From the NCBI GenBank assembly GCA_965215605.1, contig OZ244070.1, positions 2,720,001 to 2,784,000 of the forward strand: 64,000 nucleotides of DNA, read 5' to 3'. Numbering within the stretch: the first letter of the stretch is position 1; the number at the start of each line of letters is the position of its first letter. The notes beneath the pieces are model-generated. The model made no database searches. It saw only the letters and a program-made list of their open reading frames with translations, and was not told where the DNA came from. Source of the stretch: an uncultured Candidatus Binatia bacterium (GTDB lineage Bacteria; Desulfobacterota; Binatia; UBA9968; JAJDTQ01). Below, one piece after another: positions 1,563-11,124 of this stretch. Position numbers and translations under genes: made by a program.

Positions 1563-1860
1563 GTGGCCGACCTGCACGAGCGGGCGCACTCGGGAGCGTA
1601 CCGGGCGACGCCGTCGCGGCGCGTGAACATCCCCAAGCCCGACGGCGGGACACGACCGCTCGGCGTCGCGGCCATCGAGGACAAGATAGTCCAGAAGGCC
1701 GTGACGGAGACAATCCTGACACCGATATACGAGGCGGAGTTCCTGGGGTTCGGTTACAGGTTCCGGCCCGGACGTGGGACGCACGACGCGCTCACCGCGC
1801 TCACGACCGGAATAAAACGTCGCGAAATCACCTGGGTGGTGGACATTGACGTACGCGCTG
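1563..1860 (+). pseudogene. Group II intron reverse transcriptase fragment (N-terminal RT blocks only)
   Basis: YRATPSRRVNIPKPDGGTRPLGVAAIEDKIVQ...IYEAEFLGFGYRFRPGRGTHDAL...WVVDIDV; stops before PQG and YADD. Confidence 0.85.
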
Positions 1861-1892
1861 CAGGACTCGGCATCGCGAGAAGGAATCAAATC

Positions 1893-4232
1893 ATGCGGGA
1901 AAGCGCGCAGAACATGACATCCATGTCGAAGCCCGTTTTCTTCGATCTGGTAGTGGGTCGATACTTCTGGACGATAGCCGTCACATTCCTCGTGACCGCG
2001 GTTCTCGCCGCGGGAGTGCAGCACCTGATTACCGTCAATGTAGGCATCCGAAATCACTTCGATGAACATGACCGGCATTTGATCAAACTTGACGATTTCG
2101 AAGAGACCTACGCAGTGTCGGACAGCGTGCTCGTCATTGTCGCGCCGCCGAACGACACGGTTTTCACGCGCCAAGTACTCGTTGCGATTGAGCAACTGAC
2201 GGAGGTGTTGTGGCAAACGCCTTATTCTGTCCGTGTCGATTCGATAACCAATTACCTGCACACCGAGGGAATCGAGGACACCCTGATTGTCGAGCAGCTG
2301 GTCGACGATGCGGCTTTGCTGGACGAGGTCAAACTCGCCCGCATTCGACAGATTGCGCTCACCACACAGGACACGGCCGGCCGTTTCGTCTCTCGCGACG
2401 GTCGTGTGGCCGGGCTGATCGTGAGCCTGGCAATTCCCGATGAAAAACGGAAACAGCGCAAAATCGACGTGGTCGACGGTCTCTACGATCTTGTCAACAA
2501 ACAGCGCGCGGCCAACCCCGACATCGAATATCACATCTATGGTGAACTGTTGTTGAATCGGGCGGTTCGCGAGGCGCTGAATGAAGATATGTCCTTTTTG
2601 GCGCCCATCGCGTTTGCGATGATGGTTCTGGTGGCCATTCTATTGCTGTGGTCGGTTTGGAGCGTCTGTGGAATTTTTGCGATGATAATTGCGGTGATGG
2701 CATCGAGCTTCGGTTTAACCGGCTGGTTCGGATTGAAATTCTATGCGGAAAGCGGCGCTGCGGTATTCGTTCTGATGGCGATCGCCATCGCACACTCCGT
2801 CCACCTGATCGAAGGAATGACCGATGGAATGCGTCGTGGAATGGAACGTAAAGCCGCTGTTGTTCATTCCCTGCAAATCAATGCCCATCCGATATTTCTC
2901 ACTTCGCTCACAACCATGATCGGTTTTCTGAGCCTGAATTTCTCGGAAATGCCGCCGTTTCGAGTGATGGGAAATATCGTTGCGTTCGGCGCCATGTGCG
3001 CATTCGTTTACGCGGTCACGCTTTTGCCCGCATTGCTGGCGATGATGCCCATGCGGGCACCCGCCGAAAAGAGAAACGGAACGAAAACTTTCAAGCGTTT
3101 GGGAGATTTCGTCGTGTCCAAAAGCACCTTGTTGCTTTGGGCTTTCGTCATACTCGTTCTGGTGAGCGGATATGGCGTCTCGAGAATTAAACTGAACGAC
3201 AACAACAACGCCAAGCTGCTGAACGAAAGCTACGAGTTGCGCCGATCGGGGGATTTCATAAACGAGAACTTTTCCGGGCTGGATTCCTTCGAGTATTCAC
3301 TGGATTCCGGGCGTGCAGGGGGGATCACCGACATCGAGTACCTGCATCGGGTGGATTCGTTCGCCAATTGGCTTCGCGAACAGCCTGAAGTTTCTCACGT
3401 CACCTCGATGGCCGATATCATGAAGCGAATTAATCAGAATCTGCATAATGACGCAAAAGGCTCCTATGCCCTGCCGGCAAACTCCGACCTTGCGGCCCAA
3501 TACCTGCTTTTATACCAGTTCTCCCTACCGGTGGGCCGCGACATAAACAATCTCATCAACTTTGAGCGGTCGGCGACCCGGATGACCGTCGTGATCGGGG
3601 GAATGTCGGTCAAAGAGCAAATCGAGTTGGACAATCGCGCTTCTGCCTGGCTGGGAGAAAACGCGCCGCAAATGCGAACCGGAGCGACCGGCGTCGCCAT
3701 TGTCGGCGCTTACTCGGTGATGAGAAACATCGTAAATATGTTGCTCGGCACCTTCATCGCAATCTCGATCGTGTCGTTGCTGTTGATTTTTGCATTCAAA
3801 AGCCTTCGTTTGGGGCTTCTGAGCCTAATACCGAATTTCGTTCCAGCAATCATCGCCCTGGGGGCTTGGGGTTACGCGGTGGGAACCGTGAATATCGCCG
3901 CATCAATCGTTACCGCGATAGCGTTTGCCATCGTTGTGGACGACACCATCCATCTGCTGTCCAAATACCTGAAATCACGCGCAGAGGGCAAATCACCTTC
4001 CGAAGCTATCGCGCCGACTTTCGAGGTCGTTGGAAAACCGCTGTTAAGCACAACCTTGATTTTTGCGGTGGCATTTTTCGTCTTTGGCGCGTCGGGGCTG
4101 GTGACCAATCAGACGCTCGGGTTGCTGGTCGGAATGACGGTCATCGTTGCGCTCCTTGCGGACCTCTTTTTACTACCGCCGCTTCTGCTGGCGCTCGACA
4201 GGACGAAACACGGGCCAGCGCGCGGCGACTAG
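1893..4232 (+). CDS. MMPL/RND family lipid transporter (HpnN/sterol-transporter-like)
   Basis: Two repeats of TM1 + large loop + 5 TM; IFLTSLTTMIGFLSL and AIVVDDTIH motifs; ATG 1893 preceded by AGAAGGA. Confidence 0.88.
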   Translation: MRESAQNMTSMSKPVFFDLVVGRYFWTIAVTFLVTAVLAAGVQHLITVNVGIRNHFDEHDRHLIKLDDFEETYAVSDSVLVIVAPPNDTVFTRQVLVAIEQLTEVLWQTPYSVRVDSITNYLHTEGIEDTLIVEQLVDDAALLDEVKLARIRQIALTTQDTAGRFVSRDGRVAGLIVSLAIPDEKRKQRKIDVVDGLYDLVNKQRAANPDIEYHIYGELLLNRAVREALNEDMSFLAPIAFAMMVLVAILLLWSVWSVCGIFAMIIAVMASSFGLTGWFGLKFYAESGAAVFVLMAIAIAHSVHLIEGMTDGMRRGMERKAAVVHSLQINAHPIFLTSLTTMIGFLSLNFSEMPPFRVMGNIVAFGAMCAFVYAVTLLPALLAMMPMRAPAEKRNGTKTFKRLGDFVVSKSTLLLWAFVILVLVSGYGVSRIKLNDNNNAKLLNESYELRRSGDFINENFSGLDSFEYSLDSGRAGGITDIEYLHRVDSFANWLREQPEVSHVTSMADIMKRINQNLHNDAKGSYALPANSDLAAQYLLLYQFSLPVGRDINNLINFERSATRMTVVIGGMSVKEQIELDNRASAWLGENAPQMRTGATGVAIVGAYSVMRNIVNMLLGTFIAISIVSLLLIFAFKSLRLGLLSLIPNFVPAIIALGAWGYAVGTVNIAASIVTAIAFAIVVDDTIHLLSKYLKSRAEGKSPSEAIAPTFEVVGKPLLSTTLIFAVAFFVFGASGLVTNQTLGLLVGMTVIVALLADLFLLPPLLLALDRTKHGPARGD

Positions 4233-4400
4233 CTTCCGGGACGTTTTGTGATGGCCGAAGGCATGAGGCCCTGGACGCGCCGATCACCCCGGTTCCGCCG
4301 GCGTCTCGCGAGCAAACTTCCGCCCGTCCGCGTCCACGTTCGCGGCATGCCGTCATTCTCGACAGCGTCCGTATTGCCGGTCACGAGTGCAGGAGCACCT

Positions 4401-6419
4401 TCAAGACGAAATTTCGCGCAACTGGCTTGCGATGCGCAGCCGAAGTTTCTTCGTAACCGACAATGCCGGGAATGGGTTGATTTTCAGCTTATAGTCTTTG
4501 GGCGGCGGCGCAAAGTCAAAATGATGCGCTATAACCAACACGGTAACCGTCGCCTGCAAATGCATCCATGCCCATCCCGCGCACGAGTGGGTATCCAAGC
4601 CGTTCGGAGCGTATCCAGGACCTTGATGCTCATTGCGCGGCGGGAGGTAACGGTCGATATCGAAGTCGTAGGGGTCTGCGAAGCAATCACTCATGTAGTG
4701 GGCCGCGGTTTGCACAATGTACAACCGTTCCCTGAGCGGCAGTGAATAATTTTCCACCACGCAAGAATTTGCGACATCGCGAAGATGTGTGCTGATAATC
4801 GGATACATTCGCAAGCATTCCATGAGAAAGCGCCTGGTAACGTCATACTTGTCCGGCGTAAACGCTTCTTTATCCGGATCGCCGCCATCGAACAGCGCGT
4901 TTGCCTCTTCACGAATTCTCGCCGCAATATCCGGGTGCCGGGCCAACTCATAAAGCGCGAAACCCAACATGTCCCCTAGATAAATACTTTGAAACACGGG
5001 CGTTACCGCCATCATGAACATCAGGTTTTGCTCCGGGATAAACTGCGGATCGCTGCTGTGCAAAGAAATCAGCTCGTCCGCCAGCTCCCGGGCGGCGCCT
5101 GCACGGTGAATGGGAATGTGGTTCTGTTCGATGCGCCGAAGGAGTTTCTCGTAAAGCTGGAAGCGATACTTCATGCCGGGAGTGCGCGTCAGGAATTTCG
5201 GCAGAAAATCCGCAACGTAGCAAAGGATTGCTTTTTCATTCCATTTGACCAGGTCTTCAAATACATCTTGCGAATTCGTACTAATAAGAACCTGAGACAT
5301 TTGAAAATTGGTCATCGACCGGGTATCGCGCTGTACTTCCAGTGTCGAGCCTGCCTGCCACTTTTGAGTTATCATGAATTGGCGGCTCAGTCGGAACATG
5401 TCATCCAGCCGCTCATGGAAACTGGCCTTCGAGTAAATTTTCCCCATCAGCTTGCGCAATCGAAAATGATCAGCTCCGTCCGTCGACGGCAGTAAATTGT
5501 TTGCGCCGCAAACCGTCTCCATCTTGCGAAAAAAATTGCCGGAAGTCAAAAACCTTCGGGAATTTCGACGCATCCAATGATTGATGTCAGGTCCTGCCAA
5601 AAATGTTCGCGGCCTTTGAAACGGCGGACAGATTTGAAAGACGGGACCATATCGGTCGGCCAGATTCCCGAACAGCGCCGGGAGGTTGCCGTCCCACAAA
5701 TGCCGATTTGCAAACAAGCTCCTTAGGGGAATCTTCGGAATTGGTTTTGTGAGGGGTGAGTGTTGCAATACAGGCGTAATGGCGAGCTGCTTGACAGCAG
5801 TGGAGATGACCCGGTTGATCAGTTCCGTTTTACAAACCTGGTCAATTCGCTGTTTCTCGTTCTCACCCAGCTCGAAAATGAATTTGATGATATCGCACGC
5901 GTTCAAAAGACCGATTATCAGGGAATCCCTCGGGTCTGGAATGATATCCGTGAAAATCACCTTCGCGATTCGCGATTTGATGTACTTTCCAACGGTTTCG
6001 CTTTGGGGATATCGTTCCAATTCCGCATGCCAGGCGCAGTGGTTCGTTGTATAAAACTCACCATCATGGCGCGTCAGAATTTCGGAGTTGATCAACTGCT
6101 TCAGTGTAGCATCGATGATGTCTTCCGAATGAACTGCAAGCCGCTCAATCCAGTATCGCGGTTCTTCGAGATTGGGATGGGATGCAAACTCGTCCAGGCA
6201 TAGATCCAGTGCCGGGTCGCCTGTTTTGGTCGAGTCCAGGAGAAAGAGCGATTCTTCATCTGTATCAATGCGTGATTTCAGGGAGAGATCGGCCAGAACT
6301 GCGCCGATGGTGGCGCAGTTCAGCGTCCAGCCCTCCACTTGGTGGAAATAACCGTTCTGCTCGTTGAGAATCGTCAGGATGAATTCTTGCGGGATATTCA
6401 ACGATTGCTTCGTTATCAT
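4401..6419 (-). CDS. GPP34/GOLPH3-like domain fused to an atypical cytochrome P450
   Basis: N-terminal EFILTILNEQNG...GAVLADLSLKSRI...TGDPALD...YWIERL (GPP34 pattern); C-terminal ECLRMYP (ExxR), FDIDRY, heme loop PNGLDTHSCAG; start ATG 6419 (or 6431). Confidence 0.82.
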   Translation of the reverse strand: MITKQSLNIPQEFILTILNEQNGYFHQVEGWTLNCATIGAVLADLSLKSRIDTDEESLFLLDSTKTGDPALDLCLDEFASHPNLEEPRYWIERLAVHSEDIIDATLKQLINSEILTRHDGEFYTTNHCAWHAELERYPQSETVGKYIKSRIAKVIFTDIIPDPRDSLIIGLLNACDIIKFIFELGENEKQRIDQVCKTELINRVISTAVKQLAITPVLQHSPLTKPIPKIPLRSLFANRHLWDGNLPALFGNLADRYGPVFQICPPFQRPRTFLAGPDINHWMRRNSRRFLTSGNFFRKMETVCGANNLLPSTDGADHFRLRKLMGKIYSKASFHERLDDMFRLSRQFMITQKWQAGSTLEVQRDTRSMTNFQMSQVLISTNSQDVFEDLVKWNEKAILCYVADFLPKFLTRTPGMKYRFQLYEKLLRRIEQNHIPIHRAGAARELADELISLHSSDPQFIPEQNLMFMMAVTPVFQSIYLGDMLGFALYELARHPDIAARIREEANALFDGGDPDKEAFTPDKYDVTRRFLMECLRMYPIISTHLRDVANSCVVENYSLPLRERLYIVQTAAHYMSDCFADPYDFDIDRYLPPRNEHQGPGYAPNGLDTHSCAGWAWMHLQATVTVLVIAHHFDFAPPPKDYKLKINPFPALSVTKKLRLRIASQLREISS

Positions 6420-6499
6420 GTTACACGCCATTCCTCGTGATTTGATTCTTTCTCGTGATGCCGATGCCTGCGGCTTCCGGTCCCCTTTTTTCCATCCCT

Positions 6500-9400
6500 C
6501 TACGAGAACTTCTTTGCCGTTCCGGTTCTGCCGTCCGGCGTCATGTCCACAGCCGCCACTCTTCCAGCCATGACGCGTTGACTTCTCGCCGGTAATATCA
6601 TGTTCATTCGTTGGTTCCGGCGACGCTGCTCGTAGAGGGCAAGCGCGTGCAGGGGGAAATACTGGCGGTAGAGCACGTAATCCAGGAGCGCCGTTCGAAA
6701 AAAAACGCCGGCCATGTCCTGCTTGGGCCAAGTCCCGTCTGCTTCCTGCGTATCAAGCAGGAAGCCGGCACCCCGGGAAATCGCGGCCCAGTCTGTTGTG
6801 CCCGCCTCGAGGAGCGCTATCAGCGCCCACGCGGTCTGTATGACCTGGCTTTCCTGATGCGGGACGTAGCGACCGCTCAGGCAGCCGCTGTGGTGTTCGC
6901 CCCATCCCCCGTCTTGCTGCTGGCGCTCCAGCAGCCAGCGGCAAGACGCGCGCAGCGCCGGATCGCTTGGACCGGCCCGGTCCGAAACAAGGCCCCTGAT
7001 GCCGAAAAGGGTGCCGTAGATGTACTGTACCCCCCATACGCCGCGCCAACTGCCGTCAGCCATCTGGTGCCGTCGCAACCACAAGACGCCCCGGGCGATG
7101 GAGTCGGCAACCACCGACCTGTCGCCAATTTCGGGAAATCGATCCCGGCAGACAGCCAGCGCCGCGATACAAGACGCGGTACACTCGACAAAAGAACGCT
7201 CGGTCATCGATTCGCCGAACATCTCTGCAGGATTCAAGCGCTCCAGATCAATTGCCGAGCGCCTGGCCTCATAACTGCCGAAGCCGCCGTCGGGGTTCTG
7301 GCTTCGCAACATAAAGCCAATCGCTTCGCTGAGGACGGACGGGTCCGTGTCGTCTCCGTGGGCGGCGACGAGTCCGAGCACCGCCTCCGCCGTGCAGTCA
7401 CTCACCGGCCAGCCATGCCACCCGCCAGCGAAGCACCAGCCGCCTTTGGGGTCAGCGCGGTAGGCTTCACGAAACCGCTCAAAGCTGGTCTTGATCTGTT
7501 CGCCGAGCAGAAAATCGGCGCCGCGCTGGAGCGCATCCCGAACACGGTCCGTCTCAGGCATGGTAGCCAGAGCCTGCAGCACGAACCCGGTATCCCACGA
7601 AGCGCTTCTTGCTCCGGTGACCCGCAAGCCGTCGTCTTCGTCTTCCCATATCCAGGAACCCATTTTCGATAGCGCCCGTCGGCAATCGGTATCGTCCGGA
7701 TCGTGCAGCCACAGCGCCAGAATGTTGAGAATGCCGCTGACCGGAGAGATGCTCGTATGGCCGGTGGTCTGCAGTTCCCATCTGATCTGCCCGAGAATTG
7801 TATCCATGCACCGTGTGCGCAGGTGTTTGCTGTGGAACCGCTCGACCAGCCGTGCAAATCCATATCCGAGCCTGAGCCAGACGGACGGCCTTGCAAAAAG
7901 ATCGGCGTCCCGAAGCCGGTTCCTGGCGGCGAGAAAATCGGCCCTGGCAAAACCTTGCGGATAAAGCTCTTCCCGCAACGCGGCGATAACTGGTGTGACG
8001 GGCACCTGGAACCGGCGGGCATAAATCGACGCCATCGCCATATAGAGGAGCCGTGTATGGCAGTACCAGTTGGAGGGATGCAGCGGTATCTTCCGCGGCA
8101 GGCTCCACAATTCCGGCAGAACAGCGTTCACGCCGTTCCAATCATAAAGATTAAGGAGCGCCAGCCATAATTTTCCCCAGCTCGGAATGCCGAGAATCCC
8201 CTCGGCCTGAATGAACCGCCGGGCCGGCGCGATCAGGGGGTCATCCGGCAATACACCGAGCAGCCGCGCCGCGACATAAACGAGGGCGGTGACGAACAGA
8301 TGGGGCGACGAATGCTCGTGCAGGCCCCATGAACCGTCCTGGAGACGAGTCCTCTCAAACGAGCGCAGCACCCGGCGCCGCTTTCCCGGATCGAGCGGCT
8401 GGCCGATGATGTGGTGGAGCAGTACGTATTGCGCCGTGAGCATGGGACACCAGACCATCTCGCCTTCCCAGTCGCCGTCCTCTCTCTGCAGTTGCACGAG
8501 GCATTGGGCGGCGCTGTCCAGCGCCGGGCCGGCATCGGGCGAATCGACCTCTCCGGCGCGGGCAGGCCGCTCCGATTCGGTTTTCGAAGGGATGGAATAG
8601 GGGAATGCCCGTCGTAGGTGCTCTCGCGCATTCGCGCTTTCCTCCCTTCCTTCCCTGGTCGCCTCCCTCAACTGGCGGATGCCGAGCAGCAACCACCAAA
8701 GGCGAGCAGCCAACGCGCGAAAGTTCACCAACATCCGACGCCATGAAAGCCTGCGGATGGAGAAGGTTATCTCCCGGCTCATTGCCCGCGCGACAGTTTC
8801 GCAAAAGGAGAAAACCGTCATTGACATGGACAAGTCTTCGCAGGCAAGTATCCGCATGGTCCGGTCCCGATACCCCGAATTCGCTCGCCAGCCCTGGTAA
8901 ACGGCCTTTCTGAGCATAGCCGATTCGGTGCGGTAATCGCCCAACACCTCATAAAGCCCCATGGCAAGGAACTCGGGAACACGGGTCGCCTGGAACCGCT
9001 CTGCGGTGAATTGCTGGAAGTCCTCGCTTTTGGAGAGCGCCAGCGCATCGCCGAAGCCGAGAGTCATGCCGACTGCCGTCATGGGATGATAGTGTCCGGC
9101 GGCATCGCCGATAAGCACCCGGCGCGGGCTCCCGTACGTGACACGCGGTCTCAATTGGTTGGGGGCGGCATGGAATCGCCTGACGTGCAGCGCTTCGACG
9201 AAGGCTGGCCCGAGATATCCCGGAAGCAGCTTGCCATAGGATTCAGACAAGAAACTTATCCAGTCCTTGGAATTCCAGCAGTCCAATGGGACATCCACGT
9301 TGACCCGGACGGAGCCGTTCGCAAGTCCGTAAATGAAAATTGGACCCGGCCCGCCCAGAACCACATGTCCGTATCCTTCAAACGGCAGGTCGGCGTCGTG

Positions 9401-9955
9401 TAACGTCACCCCGAGCATCCGCGAACAGAGCATCGGGTCCATGGAATATCCCAAGGATCTGCGCACGATCGAAGCGCGGCCGTCGGCGCCGATAATTCGG
9501 TCGACATTTATGGCGCATTCCGAGGCGTTTTTCGAGAAGGTGATCCGTTCGTCTTCAACGACCTTGACCCGCGCGTGGGAAATGAAATCGACATTGGCCT
9601 CGTTCTCTATGACCTCGCGGAGGCTTGAAACGAGCAGCGCGTGGTCGCATACCAGACCCCGTGAACCGTCTGGATAAGGAAGCAGGATCGGGTCGGAGTC
9701 GTCGTCGGGCAGCACCACGAAACCGACGCCCGACTTGCTGCCGGAAAGCGTGTCGACATCAATCCCGATGTCACGCAACAACTTCACTGCCGGCGGATGC
9801 AACCATTCGCCTGCAAGGCGTTTAGACGCTTTCGGATTCGCTTCGAGCAGGGCCACCTTAACGCCCTTGCGCGCAAGGACAATTGCGCACACGCTTCCCA
9901 CCGGTCCCGCGCCGACAATGGCGGCATCATACTTCAGCACCGAGTCAGCCCTCAT
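6500..9955 (-). CDS. Squalene epoxidase - oxidosqualene cyclase fusion protein
   Basis: FAD monooxygenase motifs GAGPVG, RLAGEWLHP, GADG, LIGDAAGHYHPMTAVGM; then QW repeats, IPSWGKLWL, WYCHTR, HGWPVSDCTAE, GVFFRT..Y..YRQYFPL; start ATG 9955 or GTG 9940. Confidence 0.92.
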   Translation of the reverse strand: MRADSVLKYDAAIVGAGPVGSVCAIVLARKGVKVALLEANPKASKRLAGEWLHPPAVKLLRDIGIDVDTLSGSKSGVGFVVLPDDDSDPILLPYPDGSRGLVCDHALLVSSLREVIENEANVDFISHARVKVVEDERITFSKNASECAINVDRIIGADGRASIVRRSLGYSMDPMLCSRMLGVTLHDADLPFEGYGHVVLGGPGPIFIYGLANGSVRVNVDVPLDCWNSKDWISFLSESYGKLLPGYLGPAFVEALHVRRFHAAPNQLRPRVTYGSPRRVLIGDAAGHYHPMTAVGMTLGFGDALALSKSEDFQQFTAERFQATRVPEFLAMGLYEVLGDYRTESAMLRKAVYQGWRANSGYRDRTMRILACEDLSMSMTVFSFCETVARAMSREITFSIRRLSWRRMLVNFRALAARLWWLLLGIRQLREATREGREESANAREHLRRAFPYSIPSKTESERPARAGEVDSPDAGPALDSAAQCLVQLQREDGDWEGEMVWCPMLTAQYVLLHHIIGQPLDPGKRRRVLRSFERTRLQDGSWGLHEHSSPHLFVTALVYVAARLLGVLPDDPLIAPARRFIQAEGILGIPSWGKLWLALLNLYDWNGVNAVLPELWSLPRKIPLHPSNWYCHTRLLYMAMASIYARRFQVPVTPVIAALREELYPQGFARADFLAARNRLRDADLFARPSVWLRLGYGFARLVERFHSKHLRTRCMDTILGQIRWELQTTGHTSISPVSGILNILALWLHDPDDTDCRRALSKMGSWIWEDEDDGLRVTGARSASWDTGFVLQALATMPETDRVRDALQRGADFLLGEQIKTSFERFREAYRADPKGGWCFAGGWHGWPVSDCTAEAVLGLVAAHGDDTDPSVLSEAIGFMLRSQNPDGGFGSYEARRSAIDLERLNPAEMFGESMTERSFVECTASCIAALAVCRDRFPEIGDRSVVADSIARGVLWLRRHQMADGSWRGVWGVQYIYGTLFGIRGLVSDRAGPSDPALRASCRWLLERQQQDGGWGEHHSGCLSGRYVPHQESQVIQTAWALIALLEAGTTDWAAISRGAGFLLDTQEADGTWPKQDMAGVFFRTALLDYVLYRQYFPLHALALYEQRRRNQRMNMILPARSQRVMAGRVAAVDMTPDGRTGTAKKFS

Positions 9956-10298
9956 CAAAAGGCGCTGAGTGCAGCGCGGCGGCGGTTGTGGAGGGCAGGT
10001 CGCCGTCCTGGATCGAGAGCAGGAACGTTTCCGGACCCTCGATCTCGTCATCATACTCGGTGGGAATAGAGAAGCGGTACCGGGGCCACCCCGCCGGGAT
10101 AGTCACCGTGTAGGGGCCGCCCGTGTAGTCCCCTTGTTCCGACGCGGTCTGGTCCGTGTTCACCAAGGTAACAGTTGTATTCGTGATCCGAGGCCACGAG
10201 AACATCAGTTTCCAGCTCGAGCACCTCGCCTTTGGCCACCGAGTTGGTGTTGTCCAGATACGCAACACGCTTTTCGGGTCACTTCCCGTACCGGACAC
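9945..10298 (-). pseudogene. Calx-beta-like domain fragment of a surface protein
   Basis: TVTLVNTDQTASEQGDYTGGPYTVTIPAG...FSIPTEYDDEIEGPETFLLSI matches the Calx-beta pattern; no signal peptide or convincing start. Confidence 0.6.
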
Positions 10299-10687
10299 CG
10301 TATTGTATTGGTGTCAGCCCGGCCGGATCGGGCCGAATGCCGCTTAACCTATGAGTTTTGGGGTGTGCTCCTGCGTATTCACTCGAGAATGAGGTCTTGT
10401 ATTTCGAAAGCGATTCCCTTATCGGGTCAACCCGCAAACCATGTTCCATGGAATACCTTGGCTATGTGAACGAAATTTGTCAAGAAAATTGATTTGAAAT
10501 ATTTGGCATCATGAGCGCCCAGAAGCGATGGCTTTCGTCTATGACGCCGACGAGGACGCTGCTCCCCAGGTCCTCTGAGGTGGTCCCGGTTTGTAGGACA
10601 GGAAGGCCACCCACCGGGTGATAACCCGCTGGGCCGCGAAGCCGTCTGAGAGTTCGTGCAGTACTACGGCATTTTGTAGCGGCGGCC

Positions 10688-11002
10688 ATGGCCCGCAATC
10701 CCGGGAAAAGGCCGGATGCGCGTGCACTTCCTCCCGATCACAAACAGCCCCGCACGGCTCGTGGCGGCGAACCGGCGCTGCATGACCGCGGGACAATCGT
10801 GTGGACGTTCAGCATCGTGGATCAGGATGGACCTTGGGGTTGGCGTACCGCGGCCGCTCCGGCGTGGTGGGGAGAGATCCTGCCCAAGCTTCAGGACTTC
10901 GAATCGATGACGTGGGCTGAGATTATGCAGGTCGCCGGCGGACGAGCGAGAGGCAACAACAGTCACTTCGTGCAGGCAGAAAGATTGACCAGGCAAGCTT
11001 GA
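10688..11002 (+). pseudogene. Truncated conserved hypothetical protein (resembles RelE-like toxin partners of DUF4065/Panacea antitoxins)
   Basis: WTFSIVDQDGPWGW...LPKLQDFESMTWAEI...SHFV...L; stop codon supplied by a half-REP at 10999-11018. Confidence 0.45.
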
Positions 11003-11018
11003 AACCCGCCCTTCCTAC
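10999..11018 (-). repeat. Half GTAG-type REP
   Basis: Reverse complement GTAGGAAGGGCGGGTTTCAA, similar to the full copy at 54825-54849. Confidence 0.55.
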
Positions 11019-11037
11019 GGCGTCGTCCTGAGGATTG

Positions 11038-11124
11038 TGGTGCGAGGAGGGGGACTTGAACCCCCACGCCATTGCTGGCACTAGCCCCTCAAGCTAGCGC
11101 GTCTGCCTATTCCGCCATCCTCGC
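11038..11124 (-). tRNA. tRNA-Leu (anticodon GAG)
   Basis: GCGAGGATGGCGGAATAGGCAGACGCGCTAGC-TTGAGGG-GCTAG, long variable arm, GGTTCAAGTCC, encoded CCA; downstream of secG. Confidence 0.97.

Follow-up and report, generated by a model that had tools for sequence, protein, structure and literature searches.

Can one bacterial polypeptide both epoxidise and cyclise squalene, and what would the gene for such an enzyme be doing apart from the sterol biosynthetic genes that usually flank it? The question is raised by a locus of an uncultured Candidatus Binatia bacterium (assembly GCA_965215605.1), included in a stretch of 64,000 nucleotides (contig OZ244070.1, positions 2,720,001 to 2,784,000 of the forward strand; hereafter, the window). 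An earlier interpretation based on the letters alone (the sequence-only reading) had proposed that a reverse-strand gene of the window encodes a single-polypeptide squalene epoxidase-oxidosqualene cyclase (SE-OSC) turning squalene into a cyclic triterpenol, an assignment to which domains, motifs and nearest solved relatives all lend support. According to our analysis, the gene is an SE-OSC fusion of the MsbE type, and this copy is probably active, most likely forming lanosterol or parkeol from the squalene of the host. Such fusions are already published and common in sponge-dwelling bacteria, being the usual form in sponge symbionts; what differs in the window copy is its stripped and recently transferred context. 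The gene and its parts are the following (window coordinates):

6500..9955, reverse strand: fused SE/OSC gene of the MsbE type, 1151 aa (P0001), based on the open reading frame (ORF), Pfam, homologs and read contigs
8606..9934, reverse strand: squalene epoxidase (squalene monooxygenase, SMO) domain, residues ~8-450 including a C-terminal helical part, based on Pfam and on the sequence and fold match to SQLE
8534..8605, reverse strand: inter-domain linker, residues ~451-474, predicted to be disordered, based on the AlphaFold model and the spacing in homologs
6626..8533, reverse strand: class II oxidosqualene cyclase domain, residues ~475-1110, with H633, H847, V851, D853, C854 and Y895, based on Pfam, NCBIfam and a PDB match
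7385..7399, reverse strand: DCTAE catalytic motif, D853 corresponding to human D455, based on translation and PDB alignment

The region 6500-9955 translates as 1151 codons with no internal stop, in agreement with the uninterrupted ORF of about 1150 residues proposed earlier. An upstream ATG at 10054 keeps the frame open (1184 aa); this start was rejected, since the ATG at 9955, already chosen in the sequence-only reading and the better choice of the two, aligns with the ATGA start of the fusion in relatives with full clusters. That reading had also called for a check of reads across the linker: an independent contig of 2530 nt (X5) spans positions 8442-10280, linker included, with no gaps and 66 other letters. 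Among the contigs listed from four public runs, none carries the whole ORF, and indels near the linker are limited to a single X9 contig, with a -1/+1 pair at 8612/8615 that restores the frame. Furthermore, all 120 homologs listed (the best matches) possess both domains, with lengths of 1044-1184 aa and 66-94% identity to the window protein. The distance between the "GD" motif of the epoxidase and the start of the cyclase is 213 aa in the window protein and 205-214 aa in 118 of the 120 listed homologs with both motifs located. The SE-OSC fusion is genuine.

The N-terminal domain harbors the flavin motifs GxGxxG, DG and GD, and matches Pfam FAD_binding_3 (residues 9-308, 74.8 bits) and SE (residues 155-354, 78.5 bits against a cutoff of 20.1). 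Its best PDB sequence match is human SQLE (6C6N, E 7e-27; next best 3e-9), which is also its best fold match (template modelling score 0.75 over 437 columns), and the equivalents of human SQLE E153, R161, E165, Y335, D408 and P415 are retained, so that the domain is SE-like, as had been suggested. It is extremely unlikely, in our opinion, that faulty assembly or annotation created the fusion or that this domain is a monooxygenase other than squalene epoxidase. The first part of this explanation is refuted by the shared architecture of the homologs and by the contig bridging the linker; the second can appeal to an identity of just 22-23% with human SQLE in the structural alignment and to a changed residue pair (Y195/Q168, see below), but SQLE lies well ahead of the other flavin monooxygenases in both sequence and fold.

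The sequence-only reading had recommended separate phylogenies of the two domains. In the SE tree, which is weakly supported and for which rows shorter than 420 aa or fragmentary had been dropped from the first SE search, distant fusions are scattered and stand-alone SE proteins (some of which may be assembly fragments) are interleaved with fused ones. A clade of 45 stand-alone SE-like proteins of ~460 aa (within P0123-P0242), nested among the SE domains of sponge fusions, often lacks the R161 equivalent. Moreover, in 16 of the 32 long proteins that were scanned, this SE domain is followed by a squalene/phytoene synthase domain at the C-terminus (P0313, P0315, P0325, P0332, P0334, P0341, P0350, P0358, P0360, P0372, P0376 and P0381-P0385); 14 of these 16 exceed 1030 aa and have a middle part of ~330 aa which, in three out of five such proteins, gave weak cyclase/prenyltransferase-toroid matches under a loose scan. 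These long proteins are possibly three-domain triterpene enzymes, an architecture with no match in a single literature search, and P0307 is a synthase-cyclase fusion.

As for the C-terminal half, the motif DCTAE, and not the DxDD of squalene-hopene cyclase (SHC), is found at residues 853-857 (nt 7399-7385; context GWHGWPVSDCTAEA), as the sequence-only reading had stated; the columns of V851 and C854 are both occupied by D in three SHC outgroups. Pfam SQHop_cyclase_N (residues 480-773, 174.6 bits) and SQHop_cyclase_C (784-1109, 187.6 bits) are both above cutoff, the model TIGR01787 is passed (505.6 against 322.7) and the SHC model TIGR01507 is not (266.8 against 431.1). The best solved relative is human lanosterol synthase (LSS; PDB 1W6K, E 4.5e-134 versus 1.5e-50 for SHC), with the equivalents of human D455, C456, H232, Y503 and V453 retained. 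The last of these, V851, occupies the lanosterol position and is a valine in 120/120 listed homologs; among the bacteria that Wei 2016 examined, V453 went together with lanosterol production, according to the available text of PMC4919349. In a FastTree phylogeny of 112 cyclases rooted on SHC, the window cyclase falls among OSC-type proteins, in a clade of 65 rows (support 98) of short sequences separate from a clade of eukaryote-sized OSCs of 730 aa or more. This placement, obtained with FastTree only and from a tree including no named Group 1 reference, would be compatible with the bacterial Group 1 OSCs. The fusion cyclases form a clade of 38 rows shared with four unfused proteins, and stand-alone OSCs are their sisters.

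The sequence-only reading had also raised the possibility of channelling, that is, docking of the two domains with direct transfer of oxidosqualene between their active sites. The conserved spacing of the two domains and the wide diffusion of the fused form would agree with it. On the other hand, the AlphaFold model of the full-length protein gives a predicted local distance difference test (pLDDT) value below 50 for residues 458-502, a predicted template modelling score (pTM) of 0.43 and no sign of a fixed interface; its cyclase part is poor (root-mean-square deviation of 21 A to 1W6K), so that the model is uninformative on domain packing. Furthermore, the interleaved stand-alone SE proteins and the stand-alone OSC sisters imply that fusion is not needed. 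Both enzymes, moreover, take their lipid substrates from the membrane. Channelling thus finds no support here, and we consider it very improbable.

Where would the substrate come from? The genes hpnC, hpnD and hpnE pass the NCBIfam cutoffs in the host genome (97% complete), where they are clustered with dxs, a LolA-like gene, a probable barrel gene and ispH (G000:C1:1539000-1547200; L093:5006-13170). The fusion is the only triterpene cyclase found there, SHC being not found. Within the genus, hpnE is present in 22 out of 24 genomes, with no cyclase-strength match except fusions; three genomes of the same order, used as a positive control, did retrieve SHC-like matches (E 1e-40 or better). Since hpnE occurs in relatives devoid of a cyclase, a single gene would suffice, in principle, to extend squalene to a protosterol. 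Many genomes of the genus have an MMPL gene within ~6 kb of hpnE, and the host also harbors carotenoid genes (G000:C1:2875955-2880700; L094), with crtI above cutoff and a crtB-like synthase.

The genes and sites surrounding the fusion are the following:

9952..10000, reverse strand: 3'-end stump of a CYP51 (msbD-type), whose end overlaps the fusion start at ATGA, based on gap-free alignment to L005, L027 and L016
4401..6419, reverse strand: GPP34-cytochrome P450 fusion gene directly downstream, 672 aa (P0002), with heme Cys motif HSCAG, based on Pfam
1914..4232, forward strand: MMPL/RND transporter, 772 aa, convergent, with a sterol-sensing-domain match over the Pfam cutoff
1563..1856, forward strand: partial group II intron reverse transcriptase, read in the same frame as the MMPL gene and lying at the left edge of the shared stretch, based on TIGR04416
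9945..10298, reverse strand: Calx-beta-like gene fragment upstream of the fusion, common to L001, based on a weak Pfam match (24.2 bits, under the cutoff of 27)
11038..11124, reverse strand: tRNA-Leu(GAG) at the right edge of a low-GC insertion, adjoining secG, based on a tRNA call

About 45 nt located 5' of the fusion start align without gaps to the CYP51 3' ends of the full clusters L005, L027 and L016; this stump indicates that the fusion was cut out of a full msb-type cluster. The GC content is 0.47-0.65 in 300-nt bins over 1801-11100 and 0.53 over 2001-6000, versus 0.659 for the genome contig. The reverse transcriptase fragment covers residues 3-98 of TIGR04416 only (97.6 bits against a cutoff of 300). 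A direct repeat of the tRNA 3' end was not found at the left edge, and an integrase-type insertion is not supported. Close to the tRNA, positions 10575-10661 contain short repeats with many copies in the genome, and positions 10688-11002 (forward strand) an ORF of 104 aa with no Pfam match that adjoins it. The heme loop of the GPP34-P450 protein reads PNGLDTHSCAG in the window, L001, L002 and L004, with Y or F in place of N in the other copies.

Except for the CYP51 stump, the usual partners, i.e., ERG24 and CYP51 directly upstream, a short-chain dehydrogenase/reductase (SDR), a Rieske protein and a sterol methyltransferase (SMT), are absent from the locus. The search was extended to the whole host genome: ERG24 was not found (9 of the 18 genomes searched gave matches, as a positive control), an msbD-type CYP51 was not retrieved (best match 26% identical), the SDR query gave no match, Rieske and SMT matches were distant or fragmentary only, and SdmAB-like partners are also missing.

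On this basis, the following route can be depicted. Squalene from the hpnCDE pathway of the host would be epoxidised to 2,3-oxidosqualene by the N-terminal flavin domain, with the need for O2 and an external reductant; oxidosqualene would then move via the membrane to the tethered cyclase, where D853 would open the epoxide and V851 would favor a lanosterol-type product (lanosterol, possibly with parkeol). Because the search of the genome yielded neither a C14 demethylase nor a C14 reductase, and neither a C4 demethylase nor an intact sterol methyltransferase, the product would probably stay an unmodified C30 protosterol.

How did the gene reach this genome? Our scan of the GTDB genomes confirmed 321 stretches, from which 79 loci were kept; one of them, the fragment L011, was dropped from the counts, leaving 78. 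The kept loci are titled Alpha- and Gammaproteobacteria, Nitrospirales, Binatia, Bryobacterales, Acidimicrobiaceae, Palauibacter and others, and several titles name sponges. Most relatives show the msbA-E order (SDR, Rieske, ERG24, CYP51, fusion): within the fetched flanks of the 78 loci, an intact CYP51 is present in 63, ERG24 in 62, SDR in 61, Rieske in 62 and SMT in 51, the GPP34-P450 gene in 32 and MMPL in 27. Two runs labelled sponge metagenome hold pieces at least 95% alike to the window stretch, and the host is most likely a sponge symbiont.

The similarity to relatives begins at position 1857. The stretch 1857-10283 shares 95.6% nucleotide identity with L001 over 8438 bases, and similar stretches are found in L004 (96.5%) and L002 (91.5%), the flanks being unrelated in each case. 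The host shares 92% RpsB identity with the genome that carries L004 (titled Ca. Binatia), yet only 60% and 59% with the L001 and L002 genomes, respectively; together with the high nucleotide identity and the unrelated flanks, this argues that the stretch was recently transferred between distant bacteria. Moreover, the fusion tree (FastTree first; fusions shorter than 1050 aa dropped; 76 rows including the window and G001) places the window copy among Paracoccaceae copies (100/100). Vertical inheritance within Binatia was rejected, as the six Binatia-group copies do not form one clade (p of the approximately unbiased test, p-AU, 7e-8; unresolved root), and so was a single origin of the orphan arrangement (p-AU 3e-56), with the caveat that the groups were named after the first tree had been seen and that the gene recombines, so that these p values overstate. 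Only two out of 24 genomes of the genus harbor the gene, one of them as an allele of 65% identity, with the three genes arranged in the same way. In L013 (10003-12711) and L003 the fusion is mosaic, with 87% nucleotide identity to the window in part of the cyclase half and 70% in the SE half, which suggests recombination inside the gene. According to this scenario, the fusion would have been excised from a full msb-type cluster, have come beside a GPP34-P450/MMPL pair and have moved horizontally between sponge symbionts.

Several data weigh against an active, lanosterol-forming fusion. Human SQLE Y195 and Q168 are replaced by F79 and H53 in the window protein, and the human Y195F change removed >90% of activity, as described in the available text of PMC6327030; H and F occupy these positions in 266 and 262, respectively, of 267 related SE domains, fused or not, none of which is a characterised enzyme in the data at hand. 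Because the pair is present in nearly all of them, the swap is, on sequence grounds, a family trait and not damage. The cyclase scores 729.4 with TIGR03463 (bacterial 2,3-oxidosqualene cyclase), under the cutoff of 851; this is still its best-scoring model, and eight of nine other cyclases scanned are also under the cutoff. Its pocket differs from that of human LSS (Y98 to M, W230 to Y, N697 to F and a one-residue deletion near T381), a caveat on the exact product. A weak scan of the coding strand 5' of the fusion retrieved no promoter-like site, promoter and terminator counts being not above those of shuffles. No assay of any fused SE-OSC homolog was found in the literature searched (subscription papers lay outside it). 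Finally, the ratio of non-synonymous to synonymous substitution (dN/dS) is raised in the small clade of the window copy.

This last datum bears on a different explanation: the orphan copy might be intact but decaying, its operon lost, with weak expression or relaxed selection, and giving the host little or no sterol. By the Nei-Gojobori method, the dN/dS of the fusion is 0.56 versus L004 (12 synonymous and 20 non-synonymous changes) and 0.60 versus L001, while it ranges from 0.09 to 0.27 for its two neighbour genes in the same pairs and from 0.11 to 0.31 in 18 close full-cluster pairs; compared with four pooled low-dS pairs, Fisher p is 2e-9 and 6e-4, although sites and pairs are not independent. 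In addition, the upstream operon is gone, the matching ATG is absent from L001, L002 and L004 (where a nearby GTG would be needed), the gene is rare within the genus, and the genome contains, at another site, a decayed relic made up of N-terminal fragments of an MMPL and of an SMT-like gene plus a frameshifted GPP34-P450 (G000:C1:1142808-1144915; L095:6809-8916). Against decay, neither stops nor frameshifts occur in the 3.4 kb of the gene in the window, L001, L002 and L004; dN/dS is below 1, and 0.27-0.33 versus L002; the sequence deviates at 11 conserved columns, a number inside the span seen across the family (0-27), and at no catalytic residue; other orphan pairs give 0.16-0.25; and low-dS pairs inflate the ratio. 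Selection on the fusion may thus be relaxed, but the gene, as far as its sequence tells, is not broken, and decay appears to us distinctly unlikely compared with a working fusion.

A further hypothesis regards the neighbours. The three genes might represent one unit, in which the fusion makes a protosterol, the GPP34-P450 protein stands in for CYP51 by oxidising or binding it, and MMPL exports it, possibly for action on sponge phagosome membranes. Both GPP34-P450 and MMPL are found in 10 of the 15 loci lacking an intact CYP51, to be compared with their counts of 32 and 27 among all 78 loci; the same trio is also present in G001, there with another allele of the fusion, and the orphan copies, not being one clade, imply that the arrangement recurs. 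The sterol-sensing match of MMPL and the presence of CYP51s among the best PDB matches of the P450 part would also agree with it, as would an SMT-like neighbour at six of eight metagenomic GPP34-P450 loci (L100-L107; for L100 the Sterol_MT_C match was confirmed), a link on which the main text of PMC11706023 is silent. However, the GPP34-P450/MMPL pair occurs together in 10 of 22 genomes of the genus that lack the fusion, the fusion is present at none of the eight metagenomic loci, and the resemblance of the P450 part to CYP51 is weak (E 5e-14), a non-CYP51 P450 matching equally well. Besides, dS differs among the three genes in the same pairs, the L013 fusion is itself mosaic, so that the recurrence could stem from recombination at an island hot spot, and the out-of-genus genomes in the survey of the pair had been chosen for carrying the fusion. 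That the trio acts as a unit is, in our opinion, rather unlikely; the broader proposal that the fusion is a portable one-gene add-on converting squalene producers into protosterol producers, and that the stripped trio, assembled several times and passed between distant sponge symbionts, serves as a module for the formation, oxidation and secretion of a sterol directed at the host, seems to us unlikely. If true, the long GPP34-P450 proteins would gain a sterol substrate; in any case the locus provides a testable hint that these proteins handle sterols.

The SE-OSC fusion, read as an enzyme forming a protosterol, would be a candidate for a natural single-chain catalyst from squalene to lanosterol, with a possible use in triterpenoid engineering. 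Sterol synthesis by symbionts bears on the question of who makes the sterols of sponges and on the reading of sterane biomarkers, and the window copy clearly exemplifies the recent passage of a stripped version between distant bacteria.

The sequence-only reading mentioned SE-OSC fusions from a few bacteria, and rightly so: within the literature searched, the fusion is named only in PMC7074536 and PMC10070321. "Fusion" or "fused" is absent from PMC4919349 and PMC7306690, and occurs only in a reference title in PMC8237579. The closest known system is MsbE, from the msbA-F locus of a gammaproteobacterial symbiont of Melophlus sarasinorum (Mohanty et al. 2020, PMC7074536, from the available text). 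By its description, MsbE has an N-terminal epoxidase, a C-terminal sterol cyclase with the key valine pointing to lanosterol, and a sponge symbiont as its source; likewise, the window gene is one ORF with PF08491 and FAD-binding matches at the N-terminal and PF13249 plus PF13243 at the C-terminal, and it is nested among fusions of msbA-E clusters, 63 of the 78 loci having an intact CYP51 beside the fusion. The window locus differs in lacking msbA-D and msbF and in having GPP34-P450 and MMPL as neighbours.

Kelly et al. 2022 (PMC9531527, available text) reported horizontally transferred steroid gene clusters (CSG) in Ircinia symbionts, in 115 of 537 metagenome-assembled genomes from 10 phyla, Binatota included. 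The word "fused" is absent from the main text of that paper; since its "LSS/ERG7" alignment is of 3765 nt and its cluster of 5910 ± 74 bp, to be compared with an average ERG24-to-fusion span of 5932 bp in 58 loci, that LSS is evidently the SE-OSC fusion. The window copy, lacking ERG24 and CYP51, would fall outside the CSG category, and its dN/dS versus close relatives is above the 0.17 given for CSG. The sequence-only reading had placed the possible novelty in lineage and gene context: the cluster having already been reported in Binatia, novelty of lineage was rejected, and the gene context, with no CYP51, ERG24, SdmAB or SMT, is the only part of that guess that holds.

The same architecture is represented by the "fused SMO/OSC homologs" that Brown et al. 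2023 (PMC10070321) mention in their methods and trimmed before tree building; in the available texts of that paper and of PMC4919349, OSCs from demosponge metagenomes are placed in bacterial Group 1 and described as lanosterol synthases. The downstream gene has the architecture of the long-form GPP34-cytochrome P450 proteins reported to be exclusive to sponge symbionts (PMC11706023), in the main text of which "sterol" and "squalene" do not appear. Human SQLE (6C6N) and lanosterol synthase (1W6K), unlike the fusion, are separate proteins. Lastly, Gemmata obscuriglobus makes lanosterol and parkeol through the two steps of Sqmo and Osc, with no further tailoring (PMC6606645, available text), the same endpoint as that predicted from the gene set of our host; there, however, the two enzymes are encoded by separate co-located genes essential for growth, whereas here a single fused gene is patchy in its distribution and recently transferred.

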